64,000 nt of DNA from Saprospiraceae bacterium (GCA_025056735.1 JANWVR010000119.1:501-64500), one strand, 5' to 3'. Numbered from the stretch's first letter, positions 5,926 through 60,889 are shown. Notes: generated by a model from the letters alone, not told the origin. Program-made: numbers and translations.

Positions 5926-7969
5926 CGTCTCGACTGACGGGTGGTACTTCCGGTATGGCGGCACTCTCGCCAGGCGTAGGGTCGGCGAACGGCCGCTTTC
6001 CAATGAGATTTTCCAAATCCGCGCGATGCAGCACCTCTTTTTCCAACAGCGCCCGGGCCACTAAGTCGAGTTCGCGCCGCTTTTCGCGCAGCATACTTTT
6101 GGCCCGTTCGTACTGCTCGTCAATGGTGCGCTTTACTTCCTGATCAATCAGGTAGGCCGTCTGGTCGGAGAAGGGACGCATGAAAGCGTCGTTGAGCATG
6201 GAGGCGTAGGAGACATTTCCTACGCGCTCATTCATGCCGTAGTTGATGATCATTTCATACGCCAGCCGCGTCACGTAGTCTAAATCGCTCTGAGCGCCGG
6301 TGCTGATTTTGCCAAACACAACGGCTTCGGCGGCCCGGCCACCCAGGGTCATGCACATGTCGTCGAGCAGTTTTTCTTTGCGCGTGATGTACTGCTCTTT
6401 GGGCAGGTACTGGGCATAGCCCAACGCTGCCAGGCCGCGCGGCACAATGGTTACCTTCACCAACGGATGCGCGTGCTCTAAGAACCAGCCGCAAATAGCG
6501 TGGCCCGCCTCGTGATAGGCAATGATCTGCTTTTCTTCAGGGCTGATGATCTTGTTTTTCTTCTCTAAGCCGCCAATGACTTTATCTAAGGCGTAGTGGA
6601 AGTCGTCCATGTCCACAGCGCCCTTATTGCGGCGAGCAGCGATGAGGGCGGCCTCGTTGCATACGTTAGCGATGTCGGCGCCTACGAAGCCCGGCGTCAT
6701 TTCGGCCAGCGCTTCGGGCGTTACTTCAGGGGCAATGCGGATGTTTTTCAGGTGTACGCGGAAGATTTGCTCGCGCCCTTTGAGGTCGGGGCGCCCGATG
6801 CCTATCTGGCGGTCGAAGCGACCCGGTCGCAGCAGCGCCTGGTCGAGAATATCGGGGCGGTTGGTAGCGGCCATCAGGATAACGCCCTTGTCCGTAGGGA
6901 AGCCGTCCATTTCCACCAGCAGCTGGTTAAGTGTGTTTTCGCGCTCGTCGTTGCCGCCCTGAATGGCCCCTCGACCGCGCGCGCGGCCAATGGCGTCTAT
7001 TTCATCAATAAAAATGATGCACGGCGCCTTCTCCCGCGCCTGGCGGAACAGGTCGCGCACCCGCGAAGCGCCCACGCCCACGAACATTTCTACAAAGTCG
7101 GAACCGGAAATGGAGAAGAACGGCACACCCGCTTCGCCCGCCACGGCCTTGGCCAGAAGCGTCTTACCCGTGCCCGGAGGACCGACCAGCAGCACGCCCT
7201 TGGGTATTTTGCCGCCCAGCGCCGTGTACTTCTTCGGGTTCTTCAGGAAGTCCACAATCTCCATGACCTCCTCCTTGGCTTCGTCTAAGCCCGCCACATC
7301 GGCAAACGTTACGTCCACGCGCGAGTTGTTGTCGAAAAGCGTCGCCTTCGACTTGCCAATGTTGAAAATCTGCGCTCCAGGCCCGCCAGCGCCACCGCCT
7401 ACGCGCCGCAGGATGAAAATCCACAGCACGACCAACAGCAGCAGCGGCACTAAATAAGGCAAAACAGTGCCCACAAAATCGGACTCCTTCTTGTATTCGA
7501 TGGACATCTTGGGGCGCTTTTCCTTGAGCAGAGCAGCATCCAGCTCTTTGGTGCGCTCTTTCCATATCTCCACCGGGCCAATCTCAAAAGTCATGTACGC
7601 CCGAGTAGGGTCAAAATTCCAGGCGGTCTTGTCTGGTTGGCAGTCGCCGTCTTTGTCTTCGATGCGAAGCCGCTCGAAATGTTTGCACAGACTATCAGGT
7701 TTGATGAAAACCCGGGCAACCGTTTCGTTGACGACTACTACGCGCTCAACATCTCCCTGGAGCGCCATTTGCTCAAAGTCTCTATACGTAATGCCCGGCG
7801 GCGACACAAACATCCGCGACAGCTGTAGCCCCAGCAGGGCTAAGCCAATGAGGATGTAAATCCAGGTGAAACTAAAACGCGGACCTTCGCCTTCGGGCGA
7901 AGCGTCGTTGCGTCGGGGGCGCAACTCCTCCTGAGGGTCGTCGTTGCGCGGGCGCTTATCGTTGCTCAT
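5915..7969 (-). CDS. ftsH: ATP-dependent zinc metalloprotease FtsH
   Basis: Walker A GPPGTGKT, Walker [13 protein letters not shown] and zinc site HEAGHA. First plausible start is [10 protein letters not shown] at 7969. Confidence 0.95.
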
Positions 7970-44868: not shown

Positions 44869-47076
<2,208 letters not shown>

Positions 47077-47161
47077 TGCAACCAGCGCGGCCTTCCGTCG
47101 CCGCCTGATGTTATGCCGCGACACAAGAAGTTCTCGACGACATACGGGAATTTTTCAAACC

Positions 47162-47197
47162 GGGCCTGCCTGACAGAGGGCGGGCCCTTGGTTTTTT
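47162..47197 (+). terminator. Intrinsic terminator of katG
   Basis: 9-bp stem GGGCCTGCC / GGCGGGCCC (one G-T pair), loop TGACAGAG, followed by TTGGTTTTTT. Confidence 0.65.
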
Positions 47198-47376: not shown

Positions 47377-47400
47377 TCATTCATTCATTCATTCATTCAC
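47377..47400. repeat. Tetranucleotide microsatellite (TCAT)5 + TCAC
   Basis: Read directly: tcattcattcattcattcattcac, 28 nt beyond the Uma2 stop. Confidence 0.9.
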
Positions 47401-47427: not shown

Positions 47428-48111
47428 TCAGTCCACCTCCCGCTTTCCGGCCATCAAATGCTGCAGCGCCTCCTCGCAGGCGGCTTCGTCGAAGAGGGCT
47501 TCTACCGGAATCTCAAACCCTTCGATGACGTGGCTTTTGATGTCCATGCCCAGACGGGCTTTGTGCGGCGGCATGAATTGGGAGTCTTCGCCCACGCGCA
47601 GGTATTGTTCGATGAGCTGTTTGTCGGTGTCCACAATCCAGTACTCCCGTACGCCGTGGGCAGCGTAGTCAATGAGTTTGATTCCCCGGTCATACTTGGC
47701 CGTGGATTTCGACAGAATTTCCACCACAAAATCGGGTGCTGGAAACAGCATCTGGTCGTCGGTAAAGCTGGCTGCTCGCTCGGCAGTAAAGAAGCAGATA
47801 TCGGGTTTGTAGTCGTTTCGGGTGAGGGCAATGAGGGCTTTTTCTGTCAAAACTTCTCCCAGTTTCCTCGACCGCACATAAATTTCCATCAGCAAGGTAA
47901 GGTTGGCCGAAACCTTAAGATGATTTCTTTTCACCGGCGAATGCAACACAGTCTCTCCATTGATGAACTCTGCTTTTTTGCTTTCGTCAAGCCATTCTCG
48001 AAAGACTTGCCGGCGCACTGCCTCGTCGGCTAAATGCCTCTGCAACTTTTCCACCAAAAGCGGCAAATCAGGGTGCCGGAGCAGTTCAGTTGCTCTATCG
48101 GCGACTTTCAT
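47428..48111 (-). CDS. Uma2-family (DUF820) putative endonuclease
   Basis: KAEFINGETVLHSPVKRNH..., DYKPDICFF, DFVVEILSKST and GVREYWIVD give the PD-(D/E)XK-like Uma2 pattern. ATG at 48111. An in-frame TTG at 48207 would overlap the caspase-gene stop by 4 nt (TTGA). Confidence 0.8.
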   Translation of the reverse strand: MKVADRATELLRHPDLPLLVEKLQRHLADEAVRRQVFREWLDESKKAEFINGETVLHSPVKRNHLKVSANLTLLMEIYVRSRKLGEVLTEKALIALTRNDYKPDICFFTAERAASFTDDQMLFPAPDFVVEILSKSTAKYDRGIKLIDYAAHGVREYWIVDTDKQLIEQYLRVGEDSQFMPPHKARLGMDIKSHVIEGFEIPVEALFDEAACEEALQHLMAGKREVD

Positions 48112-48203
48112 AAAGATATTTTTAAGCAAATTTACGTGCCTTTTTTCCTCTTGTACAAACGCGGCAAGAACTACCTCACCAGTATCCTCTGCGAGTGTTC
48201 GAC

Positions 48204-51200
48204 TCAACGCACCACGCCCACCGGGAAGTCATTCCCAAATCCAAAACTGGCCGGATACTGCGGCGTGCCCTTGTAACGGGCTGTTAGTTCGGGAACAATG
48301 GCCTGCAGATAAGCATCTATTTCCTTGACGGTGATGCGCTTATCGCCGTTATCGGCTTTACCCTTGAGGGCTTCCAGTAGGGCATAGGTGAAGGTGCCGT
48401 GGCCCAATTGAGCAAACTCGCTGGCGAATTGTTCGCTGCCCGAAGCCGTTAGCCAGTGGGTGCCTGTGGCGCGGGCTAACTGGCTGATGGCTTTCTCTTC
48501 GGCAGCGCCGCGCACGGCCACCTGTTCCAGAGCGCCGGCTGACTGGCAGGCATCTAAAAGGTAGAGCTGCTTCTGGGCCTTGATGTCTTTGGAGTACTGC
48601 TGCAAGGCGCTGGCACTCAGGCCTTTCGCCTCCAGTGCTTCGTCGTTGCCGTACAGTTGCGTCACGTCGTGCGGCACTAAGTAGAACATCCGCTTCTCAT
48701 TGAGCACGCCATGGCCGGCATAATAGAAGACGAACACGTCCCTGGCTTGAGCAGTGGTTTTTATCTTTTCTAAGGCGGCGGCGATATTGCTCAGCGTGGC
48801 CTGTTCGTCGGCGATGAAGGCCACCTCAATGCCTTTGAAGATGCCTGTGCTGCTCTGTTGCAGTTGCTCGCGGAAGGCAGTGGCGTCGGCCAAAGCATAG
48901 TTGAGGTTGTACTTGGGATTTTTGTATTTGTTGATGCCGACGATAAGGGCATGCAGGGTAATGTCGCCTCCTGAGGGCGCGGGCGTTGGCGTGGTGGGTG
49001 TATATTGGAGCGCCAGTTCGGCCGGGCTGGACTCGGTGCGCTGGGAGTTGAGGGCGATGGCGCGGAAGCGGTTTTCGCCAGGCAGTAGTTCGAGGGTGAA
49101 GGAGCGGGTTTCGCGTTGCTTTTTGTCGTCGTCCACCACTAAGCCACGGACGCTGCCGGCGACAAGTTTGCCGTTGTGGAAGAGGCGTATTTCGTCCACC
49201 ACGTCGTCGGGGGCATAAGCTTCTACCGTGAGCGTAATGGGCGACTGGGCGACAGTGAGCGTGGGCACATCATCATCGTCCACCACTAAGTTGCGCTGTT
49301 TGTCCTGATATTGAATTTTGACTACCGGCGGTCGCTTCAGTTTCTTGATGTCTTCGTCGGGGTTGACGGGCGGCAGCGGCGTTCCGCCCAGCAATTGTGC
49401 CAGCAGGCCCGGGGTGTAGTAGCGTTCGTAGAGTTGTTCGAGCGGGATGATGTCCATGCCTTTGACGTAGTACAGCTTGCGCATGGCGTCGGGCGAGGCA
49501 TCAAAGCGGCCGTCGGGCGTGAGGCACACCCAGTCGTTCGTCTTAGGGAACAGGAAGAGCGTGGCTAAGGCTGCAGCTTCCCGGCTATCCCAGAGCACGA
49601 TTCTGCCGTCGTTGCTGATAGAGAGGGCATAGCGCGGGTTGTGTTTGAAGTAGTCCAGCGTATGGACGTAGTCCGTCAGCGGATTGTAATTAGGCAGGAT
49701 GACTTTTTGGGCTTTCATGTCCCAAAAAGAAATTTTGGAACTGGAGGCGAATAGCACCTGGCTGGCATCGGGCGAGATGGCGGCTCTCATCACCTCAAGG
49801 CCGCTTATCGGCACATTCCATAGATAATGCGTCTTAACAACCTGGCCGTTTTGCGGGCGCAACACCTTAAGGTTTTTCTCTTTTTTGTCAAAGCACAGAA
49901 TACCTTCAGACGTTTCCTGAAAACTGACGTACTCGCCTTTAAGCGTCCAAAGTATTTTTCCTGAGGCCACCTCTACACAGTAGGCCTGTGGCGAGTTGTC
50001 GGGCAAGATGGCAGAGGCGATGATTTTGCGGTCGTTGTCGAAGAAAGTGCCCAGCTTGGGCTCTACGATGATGTAGGTTTGGGGGTTGATGGTTACTTCG
50101 CGCAGTATGGTCATCGTCTGCGCATCGAAGAGGTACATACCGCCGGTATTTATGACGGCGCCGACTTTGCCGTTTTTGCCGACGACGATAGCCGAGCCGT
50201 TACCGTTGAGGCGCGCCGAAGCCTGCAGTTGCGCGTTTTGTTCCTGGCTTCTGAACTTTTCCACCACACCCATCGTGCCCGTGTGTACGCGGTATTTGCC
50301 ATCGGGCGAATAGACGGATATTTCATTTTGGGTGTTCACTTTCAGGAAGTTGACGGTTCGACCCAGCACCACTTCGCAATCTTTACCATACTGGAAGCGG
50401 AAGTCGTCAGGCGCAAGAGTGCTGTAGAAGGGCGATACGATGGCGTCGCCTACTTCGCGGATTTTTTGTCGGGTGATGAGGTCCCACTCTTCCATGCGGT
50501 TTTCTGGGTGGCTGATGGACAGATAGACCGTGCGGACGGAGCCGTTTTCTTTGCGGGCCGGGCAGGTATGGTCTATGGAGTGATAGACGGCGGAGTGATA
50601 CTTGAAGTCAGGGCCAAGTGTGCGCTTGTTGAAATCGGCGATGGTATGTTGCTCGTAATTGTACAGAAACACCCGCCGGTTGTCGAGCCAAAACATATTC
50701 TTGATGGAATACGGCTCCACTTTAGTCGGGCCGGATACGGTAACTTCGGGCGAGAACGTCACCGGGTTCAAAATGGAGAGCGTGCCCTGGCCGTTGGCTA
50801 TAGCTATTTCGAGTAGCTTGTTATCGGGGGTGAAGGCATACAGGTTGCCGGGCGTATCGAAGGTTTTGATGACCTGCTTGCTGGCGTTGTCAATCAGGTA
50901 GGCCGGGCTTTTGTCCACCTGAGCAATGCTATACCTGCCGTCAGAGGTAACGCCGAAACTCTTCAGGGTGGAGATATCGCCGACTGGAAAGACAAAGAGG
51001 GTATCCACGCGCTTCCTGGCTAAATTGATAGCCAACACTACGCCTCTGGTGTTGGAGGTGTAGGCATACACTTGCGAAGGGTCGGGCGACACACCCAACT
51101 GGCGCATACCGAGCACGTACATAGAGTCCATCAGGGCGAAGTTGGCAGTATTTATCATGTAAACCATGGAGCGGCCTGTGAGGAACAGGGTCTTGCCATC

Positions 51201-51446
51201 CTGGGTTTCGACGCCTCTGAAGGCTGTGATTTTGAGCGTCTTGAGCAAGCGACCCGAGCTGCTCTCCCAGATCTGAGTGCTGTTTTCGCCCATGACGAGA
51301 AAATACTTATTGCCCTGCACCGACAGGACGTTGTGCGGCTTGCCCAAGCGGGTCGGGATAATCAATTCGGGTGCCTGGGCGCTGACCATAGCAGCAAGCA
51401 AAAGACATCCCACAATGAAAACAAAGGGTCTGACGCCGATTTTCAT
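48204..51446 (-). CDS. Exported beta-propeller (WD40/YVTN-like) repeat protein with C-terminal caspase (peptidase C14) domain
   Basis: Signal peptide MKIGVRPFVFIVGCLLLAAMVSAQA; about 700 aa of propeller-type repeats (IWESSSGRLLKTLK, ISFWDMKAQKV, IVLWDSREAAALATL); an Ig-like spacer. The caspase domain carries the His and Cys contexts VFVFYYAGHG and LYLLDACQSAG. Confidence 0.85.
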   Translation of the reverse strand: MKIGVRPFVFIVGCLLLAAMVSAQAPELIIPTRLGKPHNVLSVQGNKYFLVMGENSTQIWESSSGRLLKTLKITAFRGVETQDGKTLFLTGRSMVYMINTANFALMDSMYVLGMRQLGVSPDPSQVYAYTSNTRGVVLAINLARKRVDTLFVFPVGDISTLKSFGVTSDGRYSIAQVDKSPAYLIDNASKQVIKTFDTPGNLYAFTPDNKLLEIAIANGQGTLSILNPVTFSPEVTVSGPTKVEPYSIKNMFWLDNRRVFLYNYEQHTIADFNKRTLGPDFKYHSAVYHSIDHTCPARKENGSVRTVYLSISHPENRMEEWDLITRQKIREVGDAIVSPFYSTLAPDDFRFQYGKDCEVVLGRTVNFLKVNTQNEISVYSPDGKYRVHTGTMGVVEKFRSQEQNAQLQASARLNGNGSAIVVGKNGKVGAVINTGGMYLFDAQTMTILREVTINPQTYIIVEPKLGTFFDNDRKIIASAILPDNSPQAYCVEVASGKILWTLKGEYVSFQETSEGILCFDKKEKNLKVLRPQNGQVVKTHYLWNVPISGLEVMRAAISPDASQVLFASSSKISFWDMKAQKVILPNYNPLTDYVHTLDYFKHNPRYALSISNDGRIVLWDSREAAALATLFLFPKTNDWVCLTPDGRFDASPDAMRKLYYVKGMDIIPLEQLYERYYTPGLLAQLLGGTPLPPVNPDEDIKKLKRPPVVKIQYQDKQRNLVVDDDDVPTLTVAQSPITLTVEAYAPDDVVDEIRLFHNGKLVAGSVRGLVVDDDKKQRETRSFTLELLPGENRFRAIALNSQRTESSPAELALQYTPTTPTPAPSGGDITLHALIVGINKYKNPKYNLNYALADATAFREQLQQSSTGIFKGIEVAFIADEQATLSNIAAALEKIKTTAQARDVFVFYYAGHGVLNEKRMFYLVPHDVTQLYGNDEALEAKGLSASALQQYSKDIKAQKQLYLLDACQSAGALEQVAVRGAAEEKAISQLARATGTHWLTASGSEQFASEFAQLGHGTFTYALLEALKGKADNGDKRITVKEIDAYLQAIVPELTARYKGTPQYPASFGFGNDFPVGVVR

Positions 51447-51477
51447 AATTGAGAAAGTTTATGCGCTTGGAAAGATA

Positions 51478-51517
51478 GGGTAGTCATCCGATGACAATGG
51501 GTCATCCGATGACTACC
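51478..51517. repeat. Twin 13-bp perfect palindromes (GTCATC-C-GATGAC x2, 18-bp period) forming a 17-bp-arm hyphenated dyad
   Basis: gggTAGTCATCCGATGACaatggGTCATCCGATGACTAcc. It lies 17 nt after the C1-peptidase stop. It abuts a TATCTTTC box (51470-51477, minus strand) 24 nt upstream of the caspase-gene ATG. Confidence 0.85.
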
Positions 51518-51533
51518 TGAAAATGGCTGCATC

Positions 51534-53090
51534 TTAATTGTGTGTAATCTCCACCATCAGCGGCACCACCTTGCCCTGTACTTTGCCCTCTACGTCGAAG
51601 CCCACCTGGTTGAGGCGGTACTGCACCTGGCTGGGCGGGATGAGCTTGTCGCCTAACGCGGCGCGGATTTTGGCCGACAGGCCGCCCTTTACACCGTTCA
51701 TTTTTTGCAGAATGGCGTTGTGGTCGAGTTTTTCGGCTGAGAACAGGATAAGCATGTAGTCGGTGCCTTTAGTATCGTCCAGGCGCACTACTTTGGTTTC
51801 GGAGGGGAAGGCGATCTGGCTGTTAGGCCCGATGTGGGGCGACATGCCGTCGTCGAAGGGCAACAGTTTGTTCACTTTGCCCGTCAGGTCGGTGGCAAAG
51901 GCGTAGATGTAGCTTTCCGTGTTGGTGGTGATGTAGAACCGGAAGCGCGTGCCGCTGGAGTATTCGCGGTCCATGCGGTAAGCCACTAAGTCCTCCCTGT
52001 AATTTTCTACCGGGACATCGTCCTCGATGATGAGGTTGCGCGTCAGAATTTTACTGACAGGCATAGGGTCGCCTGTATTGAGGCGGAATTCGACGACGCC
52101 CGACAGTTTGGTGGCGACGACGGGCGGCTCGGGTCTGGGTTCGGGGCGCGGTTCGGGCTTGGGCTCCGGTTTGGGTTCGGGTTTTGGAGCGGGTTTTGGC
52201 GGTTCGGGTTCGGGCAGTGGGGCTGGATAGGCCTGCAGGGCGCCGATGGCATAGTTGGCGTAGTCGTCGTAGCGGATCCAGACATAGCCGTTGTCGCACC
52301 ACTTTGGCCCCCAGGAGTTGAGGACGCGGAAGGCGCCGCCGCTCTTGTTGTCGTCGTAGCCCACAACGCACATAGCGTGGCGGCCGTGCGCACCCGAAGG
52401 GCCACCGTCGGTCGAGGCAGGAGTCCACACGGGTGAGGCGGTGTAGAAGCTTTCGGGCACGATGAAACACAGGATGACCGGATAGCCTTCGGCGATGGCT
52501 TTTTTGGTGGTCTGGATTTTCACCTTCGGGTCAGTCTCGTCAGGTAGGAAGAGGATCTGATAGTCGTCCAATCGGAAGTCCAGCGCATTGCGTTTGGCCT
52601 GCTCAGTGATGGGCGCCCCGCACGCATACGGCAACACGGAGAGCGTTGGGCAGCCACCGAGTTTGAGCAGCTCTAAGGCTAAGATAGGGTTGGAGCCGTT
52701 CTGGCAGTCGTGGTCGTCGTCGTCCTTGATATGCTCGTACACCCAGGTAGGCGAGTGCACTAAGCGGTCAATGTCGGCCTTGTTGGAGAGGCCGCGTTGC
52801 CTGGCCGTCAGGATGGTGCGCGTGTGATAGGCCACTGCGAAGGCCACGCATGTGCTGTAACGGCCCTGATCGCCAGGCGTAGGGCAATACTGCTCCAGCG
52901 ACGCCGCTGCCGGCACAGAAGCGTAACTGGCCGCCGTGAGCTTCGCCTTGTAAGGCGTACCGCGATAACTGGGCACGTCGAAAATAAGACCCGTCGGTTT
53001 CTTCTGGGCATGGACGCTGAAAGAGAGCGCAAAAAGCAAGAAAAAAAGACCTGCAGAGCGCTTTGCAAAAAGGGCGATTAGATGTCTCAT
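51534..53090 (-). CDS. Exported papain-like (C1) cysteine peptidase, Pro/Glu/Lys linker, C-terminal DUF4384 domain
   Basis: Signal peptide MRHLIALFAKRSAGLFFLLFALSFSVHAQ. Catalytic Cys context GDQGRYSTCVAFAVAY, His context HAMCVVGYDD, and Asn/Trp context VLNSWGPKWCDNGYVWI. Linker PEPEPPKPAPKPEPKPEPKPEPRPEPRPEPP. DUF4384-like block YIYAFATDLTGKVNKLLPF...GTDYMLILFS. ATG at 53090. Confidence 0.85.
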   Translation of the reverse strand: MRHLIALFAKRSAGLFFLLFALSFSVHAQKKPTGLIFDVPSYRGTPYKAKLTAASYASVPAAASLEQYCPTPGDQGRYSTCVAFAVAYHTRTILTARQRGLSNKADIDRLVHSPTWVYEHIKDDDDHDCQNGSNPILALELLKLGGCPTLSVLPYACGAPITEQAKRNALDFRLDDYQILFLPDETDPKVKIQTTKKAIAEGYPVILCFIVPESFYTASPVWTPASTDGGPSGAHGRHAMCVVGYDDNKSGGAFRVLNSWGPKWCDNGYVWIRYDDYANYAIGALQAYPAPLPEPEPPKPAPKPEPKPEPKPEPRPEPRPEPPVVATKLSGVVEFRLNTGDPMPVSKILTRNLIIEDDVPVENYREDLVAYRMDREYSSGTRFRFYITTNTESYIYAFATDLTGKVNKLLPFDDGMSPHIGPNSQIAFPSETKVVRLDDTKGTDYMLILFSAEKLDHNAILQKMNGVKGGLSAKIRAALGDKLIPPSQVQYRLNQVGFDVEGKVQGKVVPLMVEITHN

Positions 53091-53349
53091 AGTAACTGTG
53101 TATGGGAAAAATGAATGGGAATACACTCGATTTTGCTGCAACTTTCGTACCCAGAACCTGTCAATTTCGGATCTTTTCCGAAATCGGCGGAAAGTTCAGG
53201 TAAACGCTGAAAAAAACGTATAAGGCTTTCTTTTTTTAGCGGCTTGTGTCTGCGGCCCTGGATTTTCCAGTAGCCGAAGCCAATGGCTCGGATGGTTACA
53301 GGAGAGCAGATGAGTTTCTGGGTTGGCGCTTTTGCCCTATGGCATGAGA

Positions 53350-53416
53350 CTTCCTTTGCGGCCCTCTGCGCCCTCGGCGGTTAAAAGATTAAAAACTGGA
53401 GGGCGGTTCACCTGCC
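53350..53416. repeat. Left copy of a ~60-bp imperfect direct repeat bracketing the ATPase-nuclease gene
   Basis: cttCCTTTGcGGCCctctgcgccCTCGGCGGTTAAAAgATtAAAAACtggaGgGCGgTTcACcTGCC. Capitals mark bases shared with 55106-55166. The identical 13-mer TCGGCGGTTAAAA is at 53374-53386. Confidence 0.6.
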
Positions 53417-53468
53417 AATCTGTCTCCCGAGCGCTTGAGCGAGTGGACAAGTTCGGCGGTCATGTGGC

Positions 53469-53476
53469 TATCTTTG
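53469..53476 (+). promoter_or_regulatory. TAnnTTTG -7 box (TATCTTTG) 5 nt upstream of the ATPase ATG
   Basis: If used, this spacing implies a leaderless or near-leaderless mRNA. Confidence 0.3.
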
Positions 53477-53481
53477 CAGCG

Positions 53482-55044
53482 ATGGCTCGCTATTTCAACA
53501 CCACAGGTCTGTGTAACCCGGAGGAGCACTACATGGTGGACCCGCTTCGCGGGAAGTACCCGGATATTCGCCGGCTGATAGAGGCCAAGCAGTATTTTCT
53601 CATCCATGCGCCGCGCCAGACGGGCAAGACGACGCTGCTGCACGCGCTGGCGCGTCGGTTGAATGCGGAGGGAAGGTATATCTCCATCGTAAGTTCTTTA
53701 GAGTCAGCGGGTTTTCAGGATATTAGTGTAGCCGAAGCCAACTGGGCGATGGTCAGTTCTTTGCGCGACAATGCGGAACTTTTCCTCAACGAGGATTTCA
53801 TGCCTCCGACGTTGGAGCAGTATAGCCCGGGAGTTACGCTTTTTCAGCGGTATTTGCAGGATTGGTGTCGAGGTTTGCCAAAACCATTAGTGCTGTTGCT
53901 CGACGAGGTGGACGCGCTGTACGATGACGTGCTGGTGTCGGTGTTGCGGCAGTTGCGCGATGGTTTTCAGCGTCGTCCGCGGTTGTTTCCGCAGTCGGTG
54001 GCGTTGGTGGGCCTGCGCGACATTCGGGAGTACCGTCTCAAGGCGCGCGGCGAAAATCCGTCGCTGGGCGCGGGCTCTCCCTTCAATGTGAAGGCGAAAT
54101 CCATCTTCTTGAAGGTATTCACGCACGAGGAGGCGCTCGGCCTACTGCAACAACACACCGACGAGACCGGGCAGGTATTTACAGAGGAGGCTATTAAAAA
54201 AATCTACGAATACTCCGGTGGTCAGCCCTGGCTGACGAATGCCTTAGCTAACGAAATTGTGGCGGAAATTCTCCAGAACGACTACGCCCGGCCCATTACG
54301 GCAGACATGGTGGAGGAGGCCAAAGAGCGGCTCATTGAACAGCGCCAGACACATTTGGACAGTTTGGTGGACAAGATCAACGAGCCGCGAGTGCGGCCCA
54401 TCGTGATGGCCATCATCAGCGGCGAGAGCATTCACTTCGACGGCTTTGACGACGCCCTGCGCTATTGCCGCGACTTGGGCATCATTACGCAGGACTCGCC
54501 GGTGCGCTTTGCCAATCCGATCTACCGCGAGATCATCACGCGGGTGCTGAACAGCAGTTTTCAGGAAGGGATCAACCCCGACATCGCCCGGATTTCATGG
54601 TATGTTCGGCCGGATGGCTCTTTGGACATGGACAAATTGCTGGATGCATTTGTGGACTTTTACCGCCGGCATTCAGAGTCTTGGTTAGAGCGTTTCGAGT
54701 ACAAGGAGGCAGGCCATCAGTTGTTGTTGATGGCCTTTTTGCAGCGGATTGTCAACGGTGGCGGGCGCATTGAGCGCGAGATGGCGCTGGGTAACGGACG
54801 CACTGATCTGGCAGTGTTATGGAAAGAACAGGTTATTCCTATTGAGTTGAAAATCCGTCACGATAAGTGGTCGGAGTCGGAGGGCATGGAGCAATTGTCG
54901 GGCTACATGGATCGGCTGGGTCAGCGCCGAGGGTATTTGGTGTTGTTTGAGAAGAAGCCTGTATCAGAGTTGCCGTGGGAGGAGCGCATTCGCCGCGAGG
55001 TGCACGAGGTGAACGGCAAGGAGATAGTTTTGCTGCGGATATGA
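53482..55044 (+). CDS. P-loop ATPase (AAA/ORC-like) fused to a C-terminal PD-(D/E)XK nuclease-like domain
   Basis: MARYFNTTGLCNPEEHYMVDP..., Walker A HAPRQTGKTT and Walker B LVLLLDEVDAL. The C-terminus GNGRTDLAVLWKEQVIPIELKI gives the D...E-x-K nuclease core. The track extension 53323-53481 only translates the repeat element. Confidence 0.8.
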   Translation: MARYFNTTGLCNPEEHYMVDPLRGKYPDIRRLIEAKQYFLIHAPRQTGKTTLLHALARRLNAEGRYISIVSSLESAGFQDISVAEANWAMVSSLRDNAELFLNEDFMPPTLEQYSPGVTLFQRYLQDWCRGLPKPLVLLLDEVDALYDDVLVSVLRQLRDGFQRRPRLFPQSVALVGLRDIREYRLKARGENPSLGAGSPFNVKAKSIFLKVFTHEEALGLLQQHTDETGQVFTEEAIKKIYEYSGGQPWLTNALANEIVAEILQNDYARPITADMVEEAKERLIEQRQTHLDSLVDKINEPRVRPIVMAIISGESIHFDGFDDALRYCRDLGIITQDSPVRFANPIYREIITRVLNSSFQEGINPDIARISWYVRPDGSLDMDKLLDAFVDFYRRHSESWLERFEYKEAGHQLLLMAFLQRIVNGGGRIEREMALGNGRTDLAVLWKEQVIPIELKIRHDKWSESEGMEQLSGYMDRLGQRRGYLVLFEKKPVSELPWEERIRREVHEVNGKEIVLLRI

Positions 55045-55054
55045 GCGTATGTAT

Positions 55055-55074
55055 CCGGAAACTCCAGTTTCCGG
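55055..55074 (+). terminator. Terminator-like hairpin after the ATPase gene
   Basis: CCGGAAAC-tcca-GTTTCCGG followed by CTTTGTTCG, 11 nt after the stop. Confidence 0.4.
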
Positions 55075-55105
55075 CTTTGTTCGTCAGGTATCAGGTGTAA
55101 GGCGG

Positions 55106-55166
55106 CTTCTCCCTTTGTGGCCTTCGGCGGTTAAAAAATGAAAAACCGCAGAGCGTTTGACATGCC
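55106..55166. repeat. Right copy of the ~60-bp imperfect direct repeat
   Basis: cttctcCCTTTGtGGCCtTCGGCGGTTAAAAaATgAAAAACcgcaGaGCGtTTgACaTGCC. The 13-mer TCGGCGGTTAAAA is at 55124-55136. Confidence 0.6.
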
Positions 55167-55288
55167 TCGCCTTTGTGCCCGTCAGCGGCTAAGCGCTTCG
55201 GTTTTGGAGTGCTGCCTTGTTGCGTTCGTCCGCAGGTGCTGGGTTCTCTCCTTGCGTCCTACCTTCGCTGTTAGAATGCGCGAGCGTT

Positions 55289-56731
55289 ATGGAGAAATTG
55301 CTCAATTATATCGGCGGCCAATACGTGCCGCCCGTCTCCGGGCAGTACTTAGAAAACATTGCCCCCGCCACGGGCGAGGTCTTCTCACTCGTGCCCGACT
55401 CTGGCCCTGAAGACGTCGAAGCCGCCGTGCAGGCCGCCGAGGCCGCCTTTCCAGCGTGGTCGGCCTTGCCGTTGGAGAAGCGGCACGACCTCCTGCGCGC
55501 CATCAGCGACGGCATTGCGACCAATTTGGAGCGTCTGGCCCAGGCCGAATGCCTTGACTCGGGCAAGACCATCACTGCCGCGCGTACGGTGGATATTCCG
55601 CGGGCGGCTTTGAATTTCAAGTTTTTTGCTACGGCACTGCTGCATTTTGCCTCCGAAAGTTATCACATGCCCGGCGCGCTCAGCTATACCCTGCGCCAGC
55701 CACTGGGCGTGGTGGGCGGCATTTCGCCGTGGAACCTGCCGCTGTATCTGTTCACCTGGAAAATCGCCCCTGCGCTGGCGGCGGGCAATTGCGTGGTGGG
55801 CAAGCCCTCCGAAGTGACGCCATACACGGCCTATTTGCTGGGTGAAATCTGCAACGACGCCGGCCTGCCGCCGGGCGTGCTCAACATCGTGCACGGGCTG
55901 GGGCCAAAAGCCGGTGAGGCCATTGTGCGCCACCCGAAGGTGAAGGCCATCTCTTTCACCGGCAGCACGCGCGCCGGGGCTGAAATTGCCCGCATTGCTG
56001 CGCCTATGTTCAAGAAGCTCTCGCTCGAATTGGGCGGCAAAAACCCCAACCTCATCTTCGCCGATTGCGATTACGAGCACATGCTGGAGACGACCGTGGC
56101 TTCGTCGTTCAACAACCAGGGCCAGATCTGCCTGTGCGGCTCGCGCATCTATGTGGAGCGGCCACTGTACGAGCGCTTTCGGCGCGATTTTGTCGCGCGC
56201 GTCCAGGCCATGCGCGTAGGCGATCCCGCCGACCCGCAGACACGGCTGGGCGCCGTAGTGTCGAAGGCGCATTTTGATAAAATTCTCACTTACATTGAGT
56301 TGGCGCAACGGGAGGGCGGCCGTGTTCTTTGCGGCGGGCATGCCCTTCAACTGCCGGGGCGCCTGGCGGGTGGCTATTACATCGCCCCCACGGTGGTGGA
56401 AGGGCTGCCGTTGGAATGCCGCACGAACCAGGAGGAAATCTTTGGCCCTGTGGTTACCATAGCGCCTTTCGACACCGATGAAGAGGCGCTGGCGCTGGCC
56501 AATGGCGTACCTTACGGCCTGAGCGCCACCCTATGGACCAACAACCTCCGACGAGCGCACCACCTGAGCGCGCACCTGCAGGCCGGCATCGTGTGGGTCA
56601 ATTGCTGGCTATTGCGCGATTTGCGCACGCCTTTTGGCGGCGTCAAGCAGTCCGGCGTCGGGCGCGAAGGCGGCTGGGAAGCGCTGCGTTTTTTTACTGA
56701 AACCAAAAGCGTAACCATCGCTGAACGCTGA
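55289..56731 (+). CDS. NAD(P)-dependent aldehyde dehydrogenase (hydroxy/aminomuconic-semialdehyde dehydrogenase-like)
   Basis: MEKLLNYIGGQYV..., SPWNLPLYLFTWKIAPALAAGNCVVGKPSE, LELGGKNP and the catalytic Cys context NQGQICLCGSRIYV. ATG at 55289. Confidence 0.9.
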   Translation: MEKLLNYIGGQYVPPVSGQYLENIAPATGEVFSLVPDSGPEDVEAAVQAAEAAFPAWSALPLEKRHDLLRAISDGIATNLERLAQAECLDSGKTITAARTVDIPRAALNFKFFATALLHFASESYHMPGALSYTLRQPLGVVGGISPWNLPLYLFTWKIAPALAAGNCVVGKPSEVTPYTAYLLGEICNDAGLPPGVLNIVHGLGPKAGEAIVRHPKVKAISFTGSTRAGAEIARIAAPMFKKLSLELGGKNPNLIFADCDYEHMLETTVASSFNNQGQICLCGSRIYVERPLYERFRRDFVARVQAMRVGDPADPQTRLGAVVSKAHFDKILTYIELAQREGGRVLCGGHALQLPGRLAGGYYIAPTVVEGLPLECRTNQEEIFGPVVTIAPFDTDEEALALANGVPYGLSATLWTNNLRRAHHLSAHLQAGIVWVNCWLLRDLRTPFGGVKQSGVGREGGWEALRFFTETKSVTIAER

Positions 56732-57525: not shown

Positions 57526-57709
57526 GCAATGCCCCGCTGTCAAAAGATGGTCCCTCTGCTATACCAGACAACGCAAACGGTCGTTGTTTGGGCGTTTGTA
57601 TTAGATTGAACGATAGCCTTTTCTGCTCAAAAACATGCGGACCATCCGGTTGCCTCAGCGCGCGAACGACCAATGCGCTTTTTTCACCTTCACCCAAATC
57701 TGTTTTACC

Positions 57710-60700
57710 ATGAACCCGATGCTGCCTAAACTTTTGCAGCTACTGCTGGCGCTTTGTATTGCCAGCGCGGCTGCTGCCCAGAGCAATGTGGAAGAAATCT
57801 TAGCCCGCGCCAATAAGCAATTTGAACTCAATGCCTTTAATCTGGCTTTGCGTACTTATGAGCAAGCCCTGAAAGAGCAGCCCAACAATGCGCAGGCCCT
57901 GGCCCGCAGTGGCGATTGCTATTTCTACCTCAATCGCCCGCAAGACGCGCTGGGCTGGTACGAACGCGCCCTGCAAAGCGACCCGTCGCCCTCGGAGGTG
58001 ATGTTTCGCTACGGGCGCGCGCTCATGCACACGGGCGACTATCTGGGCGCCAAGAAATGGTTCCTGGCTTATGCCGCTCTGAACAGCACTGTGGGCCAGC
58101 ATTACGCCCAGATGTGCGACTTTGCCCTCCAGGCCAGTCGGCGCGAGGGCATCTTCAAGGCGCTGAACGAGCCAATCAGCACAGCCAGTGCCGACTTTGC
58201 GCCTGCCTTCTATGGAGACCAGATCGTGTACAGCTCCTCGCGCAGCGATATCAAACGCCGCACCAGCACCAAATCGAGCAGCGACTGGACGGGCAGCGCC
58301 CACAACCAGCTGTTCGTAACGCGCCGGGGCCCCGACGGGTATTTGCAAAACCCAACCTTCCTGCGCGAAGATCTGGAAAACACCTTCAACGACGGGCCGG
58401 TCAGCTTCTCCGCCAACAAGCGTCGCGTGGCTTATTGCCGCAACTCGTTTATGGACGGTACGCGCCAAATATCGGAAAAGGGCATGAGTCTGAGTCTGTA
58501 CGTGGCCGATGTGGTTGAAGGTAAGTGGGTCAACGAACGTGCCTTCCCTTACAATGGCTCCGACTATGCCACAGGATTTCCCTATCTGAGCGCCGACGGC
58601 AACACGCTCTATTTCGCCTCTGACCGCCCGGGCGGTATGGGCGGATGGGACCTGTATGTGTCCACCTGGAACGGCAGCGCGTGGTCTGTGCCCAAAAACC
58701 TCGGTGCGCCCATCAACACGCCAGGCAACGAAATCACGCCTTTTGTGGAAGACGATATCCTCTATTTCGCTTCCGATTGGCACCCGGGTCTGGGTGGCTT
58801 CGACGTGTTTCGCATAGAACTGAGCGACTTCGGCACGCCGCAGGTGTTTCATCTGGGCACGGGCATCAACTCCTCGCGCGACGACTACGGCTTCATCTTC
58901 GACGCCCGCAGCGGCTATGGCTACCTGACCAGCAACCGCCCTGGCGGACGCGGCCACGAAGACCTCTGGCAGGTGCGCAAGCAGGTAGATGAATTCACTA
59001 TCGAAGTCGTAGATGCCCAGCAGCGCCCTATTTCTTACGCCGAGATTGACTTTTCGGCCTGCAGCAGCGCCGCCGGCATCCGCCAAACCGACGCCGCCGG
59101 CCGCTACACCTTCCAGACGCCCGCTGGTCGGGCCAACTGCCAGGCTACCGTGCGCAAAGACGGATACCAGCCTGCGACAGTGTCTATTCGCACCGCTGGC
59201 GATAAAAGCCTGAAGGTCGTCCTGGCCAACGACGGCGCCGCTGCCCGCTCAACAACCTCACCCTTCTCGGCAACTGCCCCTGTTACTTACAGCACTACGC
59301 CCGACAACGACGACATTCCTGTGCGCATGGGCAACATCGAGCGCTTCACTGTAACCGTTACTGACCCAAATGGGCGCCCTATGCCCGGTGCTGAAATCAA
59401 CCTGACGGCCTGCGATCTGGGCATCCAGCGCACCGATGAAAACGGCCAGGCGGCGTTTTACTATCCAGCCAACAGCGAATGCAACCTTATCGTGCGTAAA
59501 AGCGGCCACGAAGACGTCTTCATCGCCCTGCACCAACAGGCCGGGCGCGACCTGGCCGTCCGCCTGAAGCCGTCGAACCGCATGCGCTACGGCGGCATCG
59601 TGCGCGACATGAACACGGGGCGCCCTCTGGCCGACGTGCAGGTAACAGCGCGCGCCGAAAGCGAAAATCACGAGACCGTCGCTATCAGCGATGCCGCCGG
59701 CAAGTACAACCTGTCGCTCAAGCCCAACTTGAACTACAAGGTCATCTATGAAAAGGAAGGCTATCTGAAAGGCGTCGCCAGTGTGTACAGCATTGCGCAC
59801 GAAGACAATGCGAATTACCCCATGATGCCTGACCCGGCCGCCAAACCAGTGCAATATTCGACGGTAACTCCGGGCAGTAGCCCGGGTATGATTTCCATAG
59901 ACGAACTCGATGCCTCCAAACCCTCGAGTACGGCCAAACCGCGGAAGCCTTCGTCGCCTGCGACTAAAGGAGAGGCTTTTGCCATTCAATTAGCCGCCAA
60001 TCCAGAAGACTTCTCGGCCAGCCGCCTGCGCCGTTACAGTGAATACACCTCTCTGGGCAACCTGTACACCGTACGCGAAGGCAACTTGTACAAACTGCGG
60101 CTGGGCGCCTACCCCTCGCGCGAGCAGGCCGACGCTGCGCTGGCGCAAATAGCGCCTACCATCACAGATGCTTTTGTCGTGCGCGAGACGCAGGTTAATC
60201 CTGAACTGCTGGTCAGCAGCACGCCATCGGCTTCTGTGCAGTCGGTCAAAAGCCCGATGACATACTCGACCCCTACAGCGCCTGCCCAGCGGTATGCTGT
60301 TCAGGTGGCCTCATCGCCCGCCGATAAGCCGCTGCAACTGAACGACTACGCCCGCCTGAGTAACCTTGGTACAGCGTACATCCGCACAGAAAACAACGTC
60401 ATGCACGTTCGTTTGGGCCCGTGGGATACCCCGGCCCAGGCCGAAGCCGCCCGCGCTGAAGCGGCCCGACAGGGCTTCCCAGGCGCCGTGGTGGTAGTGG
60501 AAAGATCTGCAAACCCGTCTGGCACATCTGCCGAACCGCGATCAGGTTCCTTTACCTCAATGAGCGTATCGGCCATGCCTACGACGCCAAATACTTACTC
60601 AGCGCCCTCGACAACAACACCCTCCGCAGCAGCGCCGCTCAAAGAGTATTACATTCGCCTGAGCGCTATGGAAAACCCCGACAACTTCAACCCTCGCCAG

Positions 60701-60889
60701 GTGGAAGGCGTCGGCGGACGTTTGGAAAAATGGCCCTTGCCCGACGGCAAAATGACAGCCATCATGCTGACGGGTTTCACGGATCTGGAAGAAGCCAAAC
60801 GAGCCACTGATCGCCTGCGCGCCGGCGCTTTCCCAGATGCCTATATCATTCAGAATGAGCAAGGTAAGATGAGCCGCAACCGCTATTAA
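57710..60889 (+). CDS. Exported envelope protein: TPR repeats, PD40/TolB-like beta-propeller, CarboxypepD_reg-like Ig domains, three C-terminal SPOR domains
   Basis: Signal peptide MNPMLPKLLQLLLALCIASAAAAQ; TPR (ALRTYEQALKEQPNNAQALARSGDCYFYLNRPQDALGWYERAL); PD40-type motifs (YLSADGNTLYFASDRPGGMGGWDLY, ILYFASDWHPGLGGFDVF). Three SPOR-like units (FAIQLAAN...YKLRLGAYPSREQADAAL; YAVQVASS...VRLGPWDTPAQAEAA; YYIRLSAM...TGFTDLEEAKRATDRL). Confidence 0.8.
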   Translation: MNPMLPKLLQLLLALCIASAAAAQSNVEEILARANKQFELNAFNLALRTYEQALKEQPNNAQALARSGDCYFYLNRPQDALGWYERALQSDPSPSEVMFRYGRALMHTGDYLGAKKWFLAYAALNSTVGQHYAQMCDFALQASRREGIFKALNEPISTASADFAPAFYGDQIVYSSSRSDIKRRTSTKSSSDWTGSAHNQLFVTRRGPDGYLQNPTFLREDLENTFNDGPVSFSANKRRVAYCRNSFMDGTRQISEKGMSLSLYVADVVEGKWVNERAFPYNGSDYATGFPYLSADGNTLYFASDRPGGMGGWDLYVSTWNGSAWSVPKNLGAPINTPGNEITPFVEDDILYFASDWHPGLGGFDVFRIELSDFGTPQVFHLGTGINSSRDDYGFIFDARSGYGYLTSNRPGGRGHEDLWQVRKQVDEFTIEVVDAQQRPISYAEIDFSACSSAAGIRQTDAAGRYTFQTPAGRANCQATVRKDGYQPATVSIRTAGDKSLKVVLANDGAAARSTTSPFSATAPVTYSTTPDNDDIPVRMGNIERFTVTVTDPNGRPMPGAEINLTACDLGIQRTDENGQAAFYYPANSECNLIVRKSGHEDVFIALHQQAGRDLAVRLKPSNRMRYGGIVRDMNTGRPLADVQVTARAESENHETVAISDAAGKYNLSLKPNLNYKVIYEKEGYLKGVASVYSIAHEDNANYPMMPDPAAKPVQYSTVTPGSSPGMISIDELDASKPSSTAKPRKPSSPATKGEAFAIQLAANPEDFSASRLRRYSEYTSLGNLYTVREGNLYKLRLGAYPSREQADAALAQIAPTITDAFVVRETQVNPELLVSSTPSASVQSVKSPMTYSTPTAPAQRYAVQVASSPADKPLQLNDYARLSNLGTAYIRTENNVMHVRLGPWDTPAQAEAARAEAARQGFPGAVVVVERSANPSGTSAEPRSGSFTSMSVSAMPTTPNTYSAPSTTTPSAAAPLKEYYIRLSAMENPDNFNPRQVEGVGGRLEKWPLPDGKMTAIMLTGFTDLEEAKRATDRLRAGAFPDAYIIQNEQGKMSRNRY

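Follow-up and report, generated by a model that had tools for sequence, protein, structure and literature searches.

A 64,000-nt stretch of DNA from a Saprospiraceae bacterium (GCA_025056735.1, JANWVR010000119.1:501-64500; hereafter, the window) carries, between katG and an aldehyde dehydrogenase gene, four neighboring genes that a first-pass annotation had taken for a single accessory cluster, raising the question of which of these genes belong together and what role they may have. The four genes encode a papain-like C1 peptidase with a DUF4384 half (C1-DUF4384; 51534..53090, minus strand; 518 amino acids (aa)), a β-propeller-C14 caspase (48204..51446, minus strand; 1080 aa), a Uma2 protein (minus strand; 47428..48111 from an ATG start or 47428..48207 from a TTG start, i.e., 227 or 259 aa), and an AAA_35 ATPase carrying a PD-(D/E)XK nuclease part (53482..55044, plus strand; 520 aa), which is transcribed divergently from the protease genes. 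Our listing of open reading frames (ORFs), which covers 43–59 kb of the window, agrees with the coordinates claimed for all four ORFs, and the domains claimed for them were recovered above the Pfam cut-offs for C1, DUF4384, C14, Uma2, and AAA_35, with PD-(D/E)XK assigned by motif alone. We find that the interval is probably composite, combining a two-gene exported protease operon that would act as an extracytoplasmic limited-proteolysis module, an optional Uma2 gene, and an unrelated ATPase-nuclease gene.

A total of 185,579 species-representative genomes were scanned for relatives of C1-DUF4384, yielding 194 loci; the best 80 of these were fetched and represent Saprospiraceae, Chitinophagaceae, Flavobacteriaceae, Spirosomataceae, Pedobacter, Bacteroidales, and Lentimicrobium. 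ORF clustering over 83 non-redundant loci (82 other genomes besides that of the window) identified two families common to these loci, C1-DUF4384 (83/83) and the propeller-caspase (73 loci, 89 genes); the next-largest gene clusters were present in no more than 19 loci and reflect synteny in one Flavobacteriaceae clade. Where the sequence 3′ of C1-DUF4384 extends for 7 kb or more, 58 of 59 loci contain the caspase. It lies directly 3′ of C1-DUF4384 on the same strand in 57 of 81 loci (a total that still includes four duplicate fetches, later discarded), often only 0–40 bp away and usually at a spacing of 0–100 bp, and 10 of these 57 directly adjoining loci contain two or three caspase genes in tandem. 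Taken pairwise, divergence of the C1 protein correlates strongly with that of the C-terminal 440 aa of the caspase (Mantel r = 0.84; 0/999 permutations as high). The proposal that the two exported cysteine proteases belong together is thus borne out by both their adjacency and their correlated divergence; across Bacteroidota, C1-DUF4384 and the caspase have been inherited, have moved, and have diverged as one unit.

Genes flanking the pair are unrelated between lineages, and flank synteny with the window is confined to its two closest relatives (L003 and L004; loci are cited by number), whose proteins are 85–93% identical to those of the window. In both, the aldehyde dehydrogenase gene directly adjoins the C1-DUF4384 gene; the loci of these relatives contain the protease pair and lack both the ATPase-nuclease and Uma2. 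The description of the block as "accessory", in the sense of an island, does not hold for the pair: close relatives keep it beside the same aldehyde dehydrogenase gene, and it is syntenic in the Flavobacteriaceae clade.

More distant C1-DUF4384 proteins are paired as well. In three of four distant representatives, the operon includes a C14 gene: a TPR-Glucodextran_B-C14 gene directly upstream of C1-DUF4384 in one, a Glucodextran_B-C14 gene directly downstream with overlapping stop and start codons in another, and a bare C14 gene three genes upstream in the third; the fourth representative is on contigs of at most 4.4 kb. N-termini resembling signal peptides are present in all of these distant C1-DUF4384 proteins and in the products of the other operon genes. 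Judged from these gene orders, the partnership appears to predate the clade to which the window pair belongs and which is marked by a sequence motif common to both proteins (see below). In two distant loci (L110 4691-6892 and L114 8374-10371), an Ig-like domain of the Glucodextran_B type, alone or together with TPR, takes the place of the β-propeller in the caspases.

The C1-DUF4384 protein consists of a signal peptide, a papain-like domain (Peptidase_C1, PF00112; 39.6 bits against a cut-off of 20.7), a Pro-rich PEPK linker, and a DUF4384 β-sandwich half of about 190 aa (35.3 bits against a cut-off of 27). Its catalytic set, Q75, C81, H238, and N258, is invariant in an 18-sequence alignment (A2). 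A profile search of the PDB returned 129 papain-family chains, the best being xylellain (3OIS; E = 8.2e-16); in the AlphaFold2 (AF2) model (predicted local distance difference test (pLDDT) 84.5, predicted template modeling score (pTM) 0.80), the N-terminal half has a papain fold, for which the best Foldseek match was again xylellain (E = 3e-16; template modeling (TM) score 0.74, target-normalized). Modeled alone (pLDDT 83.9), the DUF4384 half forms an Ig-like β-sandwich with two helices, which had no significant fold match in a structure search of the PDB; a RhoGDI-like fold was the best match and was rejected (E = 5.6e-3, TM < 0.5). A search with this half returned 506 representative clusters, and 78 of the 85 scanned showed the C1 + DUF4384 architecture. 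The ratio of nonsynonymous to synonymous substitution rates (ω) was 0.03–0.04 for C1-DUF4384 among three close orthologues, as compared to 0.05 for the adjoining aldehyde dehydrogenase. On viral contigs, C1 matches cover the protease domain alone, with 25–36% identity for near-full-span matches and up to 50% over short fragments; neither the DUF4384 half nor the ATPase-nuclease had relatives there, in a search that did not include the caspase. In the DNA, a degenerate tandem repeat with a 12-nt unit (52126-52197) underlies the PEPK linker, and the length of the linker differs widely among orthologues.

The caspase domain (Peptidase_C14, PF00656; 63 bits against a cut-off of 21.4) spans residues 832-1064 of the second protein, following the β-propeller and a conserved middle region, and the propeller assignments derive from weak Pfam matches below the cut-offs; the NCBIfam model "caspase_w_EACC1" (NF047832) matched with 104.5 bits, below its cut-off of 140. 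The catalytic dyad is intact, with His912 present in 78/78 and Cys967 in 76/78 family members, and the D965-A-C967 motif hints at metacaspase-type specificity. The two parts of the protein differ in conservation: within the family, identity is 15–20% in the propeller and 40–76% in the C-terminal 440 aa (p-distance 0.82 vs. 0.47). Among three close orthologues, ω was 0.07 for the caspase domain and 0.12–0.14 for the propeller, and the highest ω of any 60-codon window in the protease genes was 0.28. Diversifying selection on the propeller was accordingly rejected, and given this ceiling on ω, the divergence that the propeller shows between families reflects weaker constraint and not an arms race.

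Both proteases carry Sec signal peptides, as first annotated, with N-termini read as signal peptidase I (SPI) type. These end in ...VHA|QKKP (C1-DUF4384) and ...VSA|QAPE (caspase), and both sites fit the Q-rule for signal-peptide cleavage sites in Bacteroidetes (PMC5837995); signal-peptide-like N-termini were found in 81/83 C1 proteins and 70/78 caspases. A lipoprotein N-terminus (IVGC) was considered for the caspase and rejected, as the Cys is not kept in an 86%-identical orthologue (VVGG). The C-terminal domain of the T9SS (type IX secretion system; Por_Secre_tail, PF18962/TIGR04183) was found on neither protease by searches that do detect this domain in neighboring proteins of relatives.

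An hhalign comparison of the middle region of the caspase with the C-terminal half of the C1 protein produced a sole match, the 14-column motif (T)RNLxVEDD; homology of the caspase middle region to DUF4384 was rejected, since hhalign shows nothing beyond this motif. In C1-DUF4384 of the window, the motif reads RNLIIEDD (residues 351-358; 52017..52040, minus strand) and is followed by a variable, low-confidence loop. Its columns are well conserved in the C1 family (R351 80/83, N352 80/83, L353 82/83, then V-E-D-D, then a gap-rich loop), and the AF2 model has pLDDT < 50 at residues 351-364, with the post-motif loop disordered. The caspase has two copies, RNLVVDDD (residues 718-725; 49272..49295, minus strand; R718 77/78, N719 75/78, L720 73/78) and RGLVVDDD (residues 767-774; 49125..49148, minus strand; family consensus tRNLxVEDD), the latter conserved in 76/78 (R767), 58/78 (N768, with Gly in 18), and 74/78 (L769) members. 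The regular expression for the motif matched 73/83 C1 proteins, 78/89 caspases (50 of them twice), and only 2 of 801 products of other neighboring genes (269,362 aa); both of the latter are secreted DUF4384 proteins that are accessory members of the same operons and have the motif immediately before a Pro-rich linker. Among the scanned representatives of the broader C1-DUF4384 family, only the two closest have the motif, which is thus specific to the clade whose propeller-caspase partners carry it as well. Since it adjoins flexible segments, its placement favors a candidate processing or docking site; possible cleavage readings include a papain-type cut with P2 Leu and variable P1, an orthocaspase cut after Arg, and an Asp-type cut (VEDD|).

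We infer a physical or proteolytic interaction between the two enzymes, a role of the motif in it, a compartment for the pair, and a physiological role, as follows. The two Sec-exported proteases would cooperate in an extracytoplasmic location (the periplasm or the cell surface), and one would process or dock onto the other at (T)RNLxVEDD beside the flexible linkers; accessory DUF4384 proteins might be processed or docked likewise, and the propeller or TPR part could select targets or partners. A more far-reaching version of this proposal is tentative and, in our judgment, probably goes too far: the pair would represent a widespread two-tier extracytoplasmic cysteine-protease cascade, with a caspase targeted by its propeller or TPR module and mutual activation or processing at a (T)RNLxVEDD site beside DUF4384, in which this domain serves as a general caspase-recognition or substrate module, and the cascade would control envelope remodeling, surface-protein maturation, or regulated lysis. 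A part for DUF4384 as a caspase module is hinted at by analogy with Csx30 in Craspase (see below).

Additional features of the protease loci bear on copy number and possible regulation. The spacer between the C1-DUF4384 and caspase genes contains a near-perfect inverted repeat forming a hairpin with 17-nt arms (51479..51517, minus strand; ΔG = -29.3 kcal/mol, z = -5.65), which is kept in L004 with a compensatory change; this hairpin is possibly an attenuator or an RNA-processing element that sets the ratio of the two proteases. Tandem arrays of two to three propeller-caspases 3′ of a single C1-DUF4384 gene were observed in L004 (10001-20025, with three copies and without Uma2), L006 (5716-15024), L007 (2463-12456), and L080 (11607-21232); these tandem paralogues are old (p-distance 0.43–0.69), and the genome of the window has one copy. 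In L003 (4780-9804), C1-DUF4384 and the caspase are separated by the genes for a ROCO-type (LRR-Roc-COR-TIR) protein of 920 aa and for a cellulase with a T9SS tail. In several Saprospiraceae, a TPR sensor histidine kinase with a signal peptide (HisKA_3/HATPase_c) and a LuxR-type response regulator are encoded in or beside the protease operon (L018 11449-13242; L043 13356-14000; L023 7236-9023 and 19512-20165; L025 4956-6716 and 19020-19673), and they are possible regulators of the protease module.

The ATPase-nuclease presents a different pattern. Its AAA_35 domain (PF14516) scored 31.6 bits against a cut-off of 27, with AAA_16 and AAA_22 also above their Pfam cut-offs; the nuclease part had no Pfam profile match, its PD-(D/E)XK assignment being based on the D442...E455-x-K457 motif. 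Walker A (P44-T51), Walker B (D141-E142), and the nuclease residues D442, E455, and K457 are invariant in 13 sequences. The family exceeds 7,800 proteins, of which the best 120 measure 489-564 aa (503 or 520 in most cases) and show 65–89% identity to the window protein, and full-length relatives with about 42% identity are found on cyanobacterial plasmids, including several replicons of one strain with one copy per replicon. A second copy with 89% aa identity is present on another contig of the same genome (L088), among housekeeping genes, and a tandem pair was found in another genome (L089). Beside the protease pair, the gene was found in the window genome only, being absent from this position in all loci from the 82 other genomes. 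Because it is absent beside the pair elsewhere and solitary among housekeeping genes, the ATPase-nuclease is best classified, from its sequence and distribution, as an unrelated stand-alone multi-copy gene and not as part of the protease module.

Comparison with L003 and L004 delimits the segment that carries this gene. About 2.05 kb separates the aldehyde dehydrogenase and C1 promoter regions in the window, as compared to about 75 bp in the two relatives; the segment without counterpart spans 53197..55249 (local alignment breakpoints at 53196 and 55250). Similarity between the two copies in the same genome is limited to the gene itself plus 35 nt before the ATG and about 31 nt after the stop codon; the copies show purifying selection (ω = 0.09), with a synonymous divergence (dS) of 0.67, against 0.46–0.96 (mostly 0.7–0.9) for orthologous genes of the window. 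Two copies of a short dispersed repeat with the core GGCGGTTAAAAGATTAAAAAC bracket the gene (53358..53416 and 55120..55166, both plus strand), the upstream copy also being found beside the second ATPase copy (L088 7762-7818) and the downstream copy also matching L088 5134-5165. Just 3′ of the stop codon lies a terminator-like palindrome, CCGGAAACTCCAGTTTCCGG (55055..55074, plus strand; the region was also delimited as 55050-55076), which is dispersed, resembles repetitive extragenic palindromic (REP) elements, and has further copies flanking the L088 paralogue. In the 64-kb window, neither GGCGGTTAAAAGATTAAAAAC (the "R" element) nor CCGGAAACTCCAGTTTCCGG occurs elsewhere, and a REP-like repeat system may be associated with the ATPase-nuclease family. 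The copy in L088 is accompanied by repeat arrays at 5134-5905 and 7580-7823, with two adjacent repeat families, D1 (100 nt) and D2 (72 nt), together about 170 nt, each present on both sides of the gene. A target-site duplication was considered for the 50–60-nt direct repeat and rejected, as both copies lie inside the segment that the relatives lack, repeat and palindrome also flank the L088 paralogue, and the L089 tandem pair has no flanking repeats. The repeated 60-bp element that had been proposed as the right bound of the four-gene block brackets the ATPase-nuclease gene alone. PADLOC gave marginal, partial matches to this protein (LmuA, E = 0.001, residues 427-520; PDC-S01, E = 6e-4), and Lamassu was not assigned, with no full-length LmuA and no SMC-like neighbor among the listed ORFs.

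Uma2 is a clear member of its family of PD-(D/E)XK nucleases (PF05685; 109.5 bits against a cut-off of 27, profile positions 4-171 of 172), matches the PADLOC single-gene candidate PDC-S03 (E = 2.7e-32), and has no signal peptide. An iterated hidden Markov model search found one copy in the 64-kb window and seven further distinct ORFs in about 1.4 Mb of fetched loci (four other genomes), i.e., eight in total, all in Saprospiraceae (L020 7046-7669 and 10335-10958; L023 9014-9649 and 11574-12152; L025 6723-7304 and 10194-10757; L082 3498-4124). Their position and orientation vary, in that Uma2 can lie upstream of C1, separate the protease genes, or sit downstream of the caspase. Nucleotide identity among the paralogues is about 70% and confined to the coding region, with no shared flanks; at this level of identity they are old, and Uma2 as a recently mobile gene was rejected. 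Uma2 is absent from L003 and L004 and from all non-Saprospiraceae loci, and because it is missing from the closest relatives and from other families, it is at most a lineage-specific add-on and an optional neighbor of the pair.

Several points weigh against reading the interval as a limited-proteolysis module with an optional and an unrelated neighbor. One locus with ample flank (L066) has C1-DUF4384 without a caspase. The extracytoplasmic location of the proteases is predicted from the signal peptides, and neither a T9SS C-terminal domain nor a lipobox is conserved in them. The motif could be structural, such as a strand end bearing an acidic metal-binding cluster, instead of a site of cleavage or docking. 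The dS of the two ATPase copies is compatible with insertion of the gene here as well as with its loss in the relatives. Finally, for seven of the eight Uma2 ORFs, a C1 or caspase gene is no more than 316 bp away; this adjacency is clearly non-random, and a functional tie to the pair in Saprospiraceae is conceivable. Uma2 may, on this evidence, be a true third component in Saprospiraceae, such as a regulator or an addiction or immunity partner, given its proximity to the pair genes, its single copy in the window, and the coding-region identity that marks its copies as long-standing residents. We consider this quite unlikely, as the position and orientation of the gene vary, it is absent from relatives with 85–93% identical proteins and from all other families, the lack of a signal peptide places it in a compartment different from that of the proteases, and the counts come from five phylogenetically related genomes and are not independent. 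The recurrence of Uma2 beside the pair in several Saprospiraceae and its match to PDC-S03 could also be taken, together with the relative in which a LRR-Roc-COR-TIR gene separates the protease genes, as signs that all four genes form one anti-phage or abortive-infection system, with the ATPase-nuclease and Uma2 sensing or degrading DNA and the proteases as effectors; caspase-like proteases, NTPases, and PD-(D/E)XK nucleases are recurrent in conflict systems. This reading is strongly disfavored because the genes do not co-occur, and we regard it as highly improbable: not one of the 82 other genomes has the ATPase-nuclease next to the pair, Uma2 is lacking in L003 and L004 and in all other families, exported proteases would have to act with cytoplasmic nucleases, no window of the protease genes has ω > 0.28, PADLOC and NCBIfam matched no complete known system, and the neighbors are lineage-specific housekeeping genes.

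Two further explanations concern the pair itself. The proteases may be ordinary secreted digestive enzymes for protein scavenging that are co-transcribed without a specific partnership; Saprospiraceae are protein degraders, both enzymes have signal peptides, a Peptidase_S9 gene lies immediately upstream of C1-DUF4384 in L006, and purifying selection is typical of metabolic genes. However, near-obligate adjacency across families and caspase architectures and a private motif common to both proteins speak against this, caspase-fold enzymes are usually site-specific processors, neither protein has a T9SS secretion domain for crossing the outer membrane, and a sensor kinase and response regulator are encoded near some loci, making this explanation unlikely. 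Similarly improbable is a role of the pair as an extracytoplasmic conflict or death module, in which the propeller would sense a foreign or damage signal and the caspase would activate the papain-like enzyme, lysing the cell or attacking a competitor or predator. The much greater divergence of the propeller than of the catalytic part, the two or three tandem caspase paralogues, the conflict-type genes sometimes present at the locus, and the metacaspase expansions of Saprospiraceae, for which extracellular roles have been proposed (PMC3501461), are consistent with such a module; on the other hand, close orthologues show no diversifying selection (propeller ω 0.12–0.14, window maximum 0.28), the pair is stably syntenic in the Flavobacteriaceae clade, and the tandem paralogues are old. 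Limited proteolysis outside the cytoplasm by a dedicated protease pair is thus the reading we prefer. With regard to the first-pass annotation, the four genes do not form one unit; the suggested defense or abortive-infection role is unlikely, since both proteases are exported, ω is only 0.03–0.14, the housekeeping neighbors are lineage-specific, and viral contigs contain no relatives of the ATPase-nuclease or the DUF4384 half; and the alternative it offered, an envelope-proteolysis module, stands for the two protease genes and not for all four. Its suggestion that the combination may be undescribed agrees with the absence of a system-level match in PADLOC and NCBIfam.

The katG intrinsic terminator (47162..47187, plus strand), followed by a T-run, forms the left boundary of the block, and a (TCAT)n microsatellite, seen by reading the sequence, lies 3′ of Uma2 (47377..47400); both had been described correctly, as had the 87 nt that separate the C1-DUF4384 gene from the caspase gene; the gap between the caspase stop codon and Uma2, given as 0–90 nt, measures 92 nt for the ATG start and becomes a 4-nt overlap for the TTG start. 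A longer ORF of the C1 gene with a TTG start at 53141 exists, and the 518-aa form is used by NCBI and in relatives. As previously stated, no integrase or transposase is encoded among the listed ORFs; a tRNA scan found no tRNA at the locus, an Rfam scan of the window matched no family, CRISPR-related RNA included, and no att-like ends or tRNA target were found around the four genes, which do not qualify as a genomic island and show no clear deviation in GC content. Long antisense "shadow" ORFs (160–430 aa) are present opposite katG, the aldehyde dehydrogenase gene, and others (44869-47124 and 55385-56350, among others); these are not genes, and result from the high G+C content. Past a pseudouridine synthase gene, 57635-60889 encodes a 1084-aa exported protein with TPR, PD40, CarboxypepD_reg, and SPOR domains that is unrelated to the protease pair.

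Bacterial caspase homologues are abundant, especially in Saprospiraceae, yet hardly any has been connected with a partner, a substrate, or a compartment. The loci described here give them a concrete context, namely a near-obligate papain-like partner and a candidate processing motif, and give the orphan domain DUF4384 a recurring link to caspase-fold proteases, in operons as well as in CRISPR-linked Csx30. They also remove a false lead, as the ATPase-nuclease and, largely, Uma2 are not parts of a four-gene "defense system". Cultured carriers of the pair include Aequorivita, Dokdonia, Arcicella, Flectobacillus, and Pedobacter sp. Hv1.

Compared with known systems, the two neighbors of the pair resemble single genes. 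The ATPase-nuclease has the architecture of stand-alone AAA_35 genes with a C-terminal DUF8371, which are multi-copy and solitary, are analogous to Bacteroides genes combining AAA-ATPase_like and PDDEXK_9, and have no demonstrated tie to defense, mobility, or the protease pair. Uma2 (DUF820) resembles PDC-S03 in its full-length Pfam match and its match to the candidate model, although PDC-S03 is a single-gene candidate whose description lacks adjacency to an exported protease operon. In PADLOC-DB v2, the locus matched no complete described system, producing only a generic caspase model, PDC-S03, and the marginal ATPase matches.

Among the related systems is the type III-E Craspase, which likewise combines a clan-CD caspase-like protease with a partner that in some variants has a C-terminal DUF4384: some Csx30 proteins carry this domain behind a flexible linker, and Csx30 is cleaved by the caspase-like Csx29 (bioRxiv 10.1101/2022.08.17.504292). 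Craspase differs in being cytoplasmic and RNA-guided with a TPR-CHAT protease, whereas the DUF4384 protein of the window is itself a protease and both window proteins are predicted to be exported; none of its components (Cas7-11, TPR-CHAT Csx29), and no cas genes, were found among the listed ORFs. DUF4384 also accompanies cyanobacterial orthocaspases and is among the C-terminal domain organizations of a Ser/Thr kinase family. Gingipains resemble the pair as exported clan-CD cysteine proteases of Bacteroidota with Ig-like accessory domains, and differ in belonging to family C25 instead of C14 and in having a T9SS C-terminal domain, none of which was detected in the window proteases. The C1-DUF4384 protein has its best sequence and fold match, including the Gln/Cys/His/Asn set, in xylellain (3OIS) among bacterial C1 peptidases and, like it, has no long propeptide and only a short extension at the N-terminus; it differs by its signal peptide, Pro-rich linker, 190-aa DUF4384 half, and operon with a caspase. 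The second protein shares with bacterial caspase homologues (orthocaspases and metacaspases, C14) the caspase fold, an intact His-Cys dyad, the D-x-C motif, and fusion to WD40/propeller or TPR repeats, and is set apart by near-obligate pairing with an exported C1-DUF4384 protein and by the private motif common to both; the orthocaspases studied to date are cytoplasmic cyanobacterial enzymes, unlike the window caspase with its predicted export. The main survey of prokaryotic caspase homologues noted that signal peptides are probable, that Bacteroidetes have multi-caspase operons, and that Haliscomenobacter has 28 copies, and it did not describe a C1-caspase pair (PMC3501461), nor did we find a description of the pair in the literature on DUF4384, xylellain, exported bacterial caspases, or the C1 + C14 combination. 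The pair is therefore best read as an uncharacterized, widespread exported papain-caspase partnership within the known bacterial caspase homologues.

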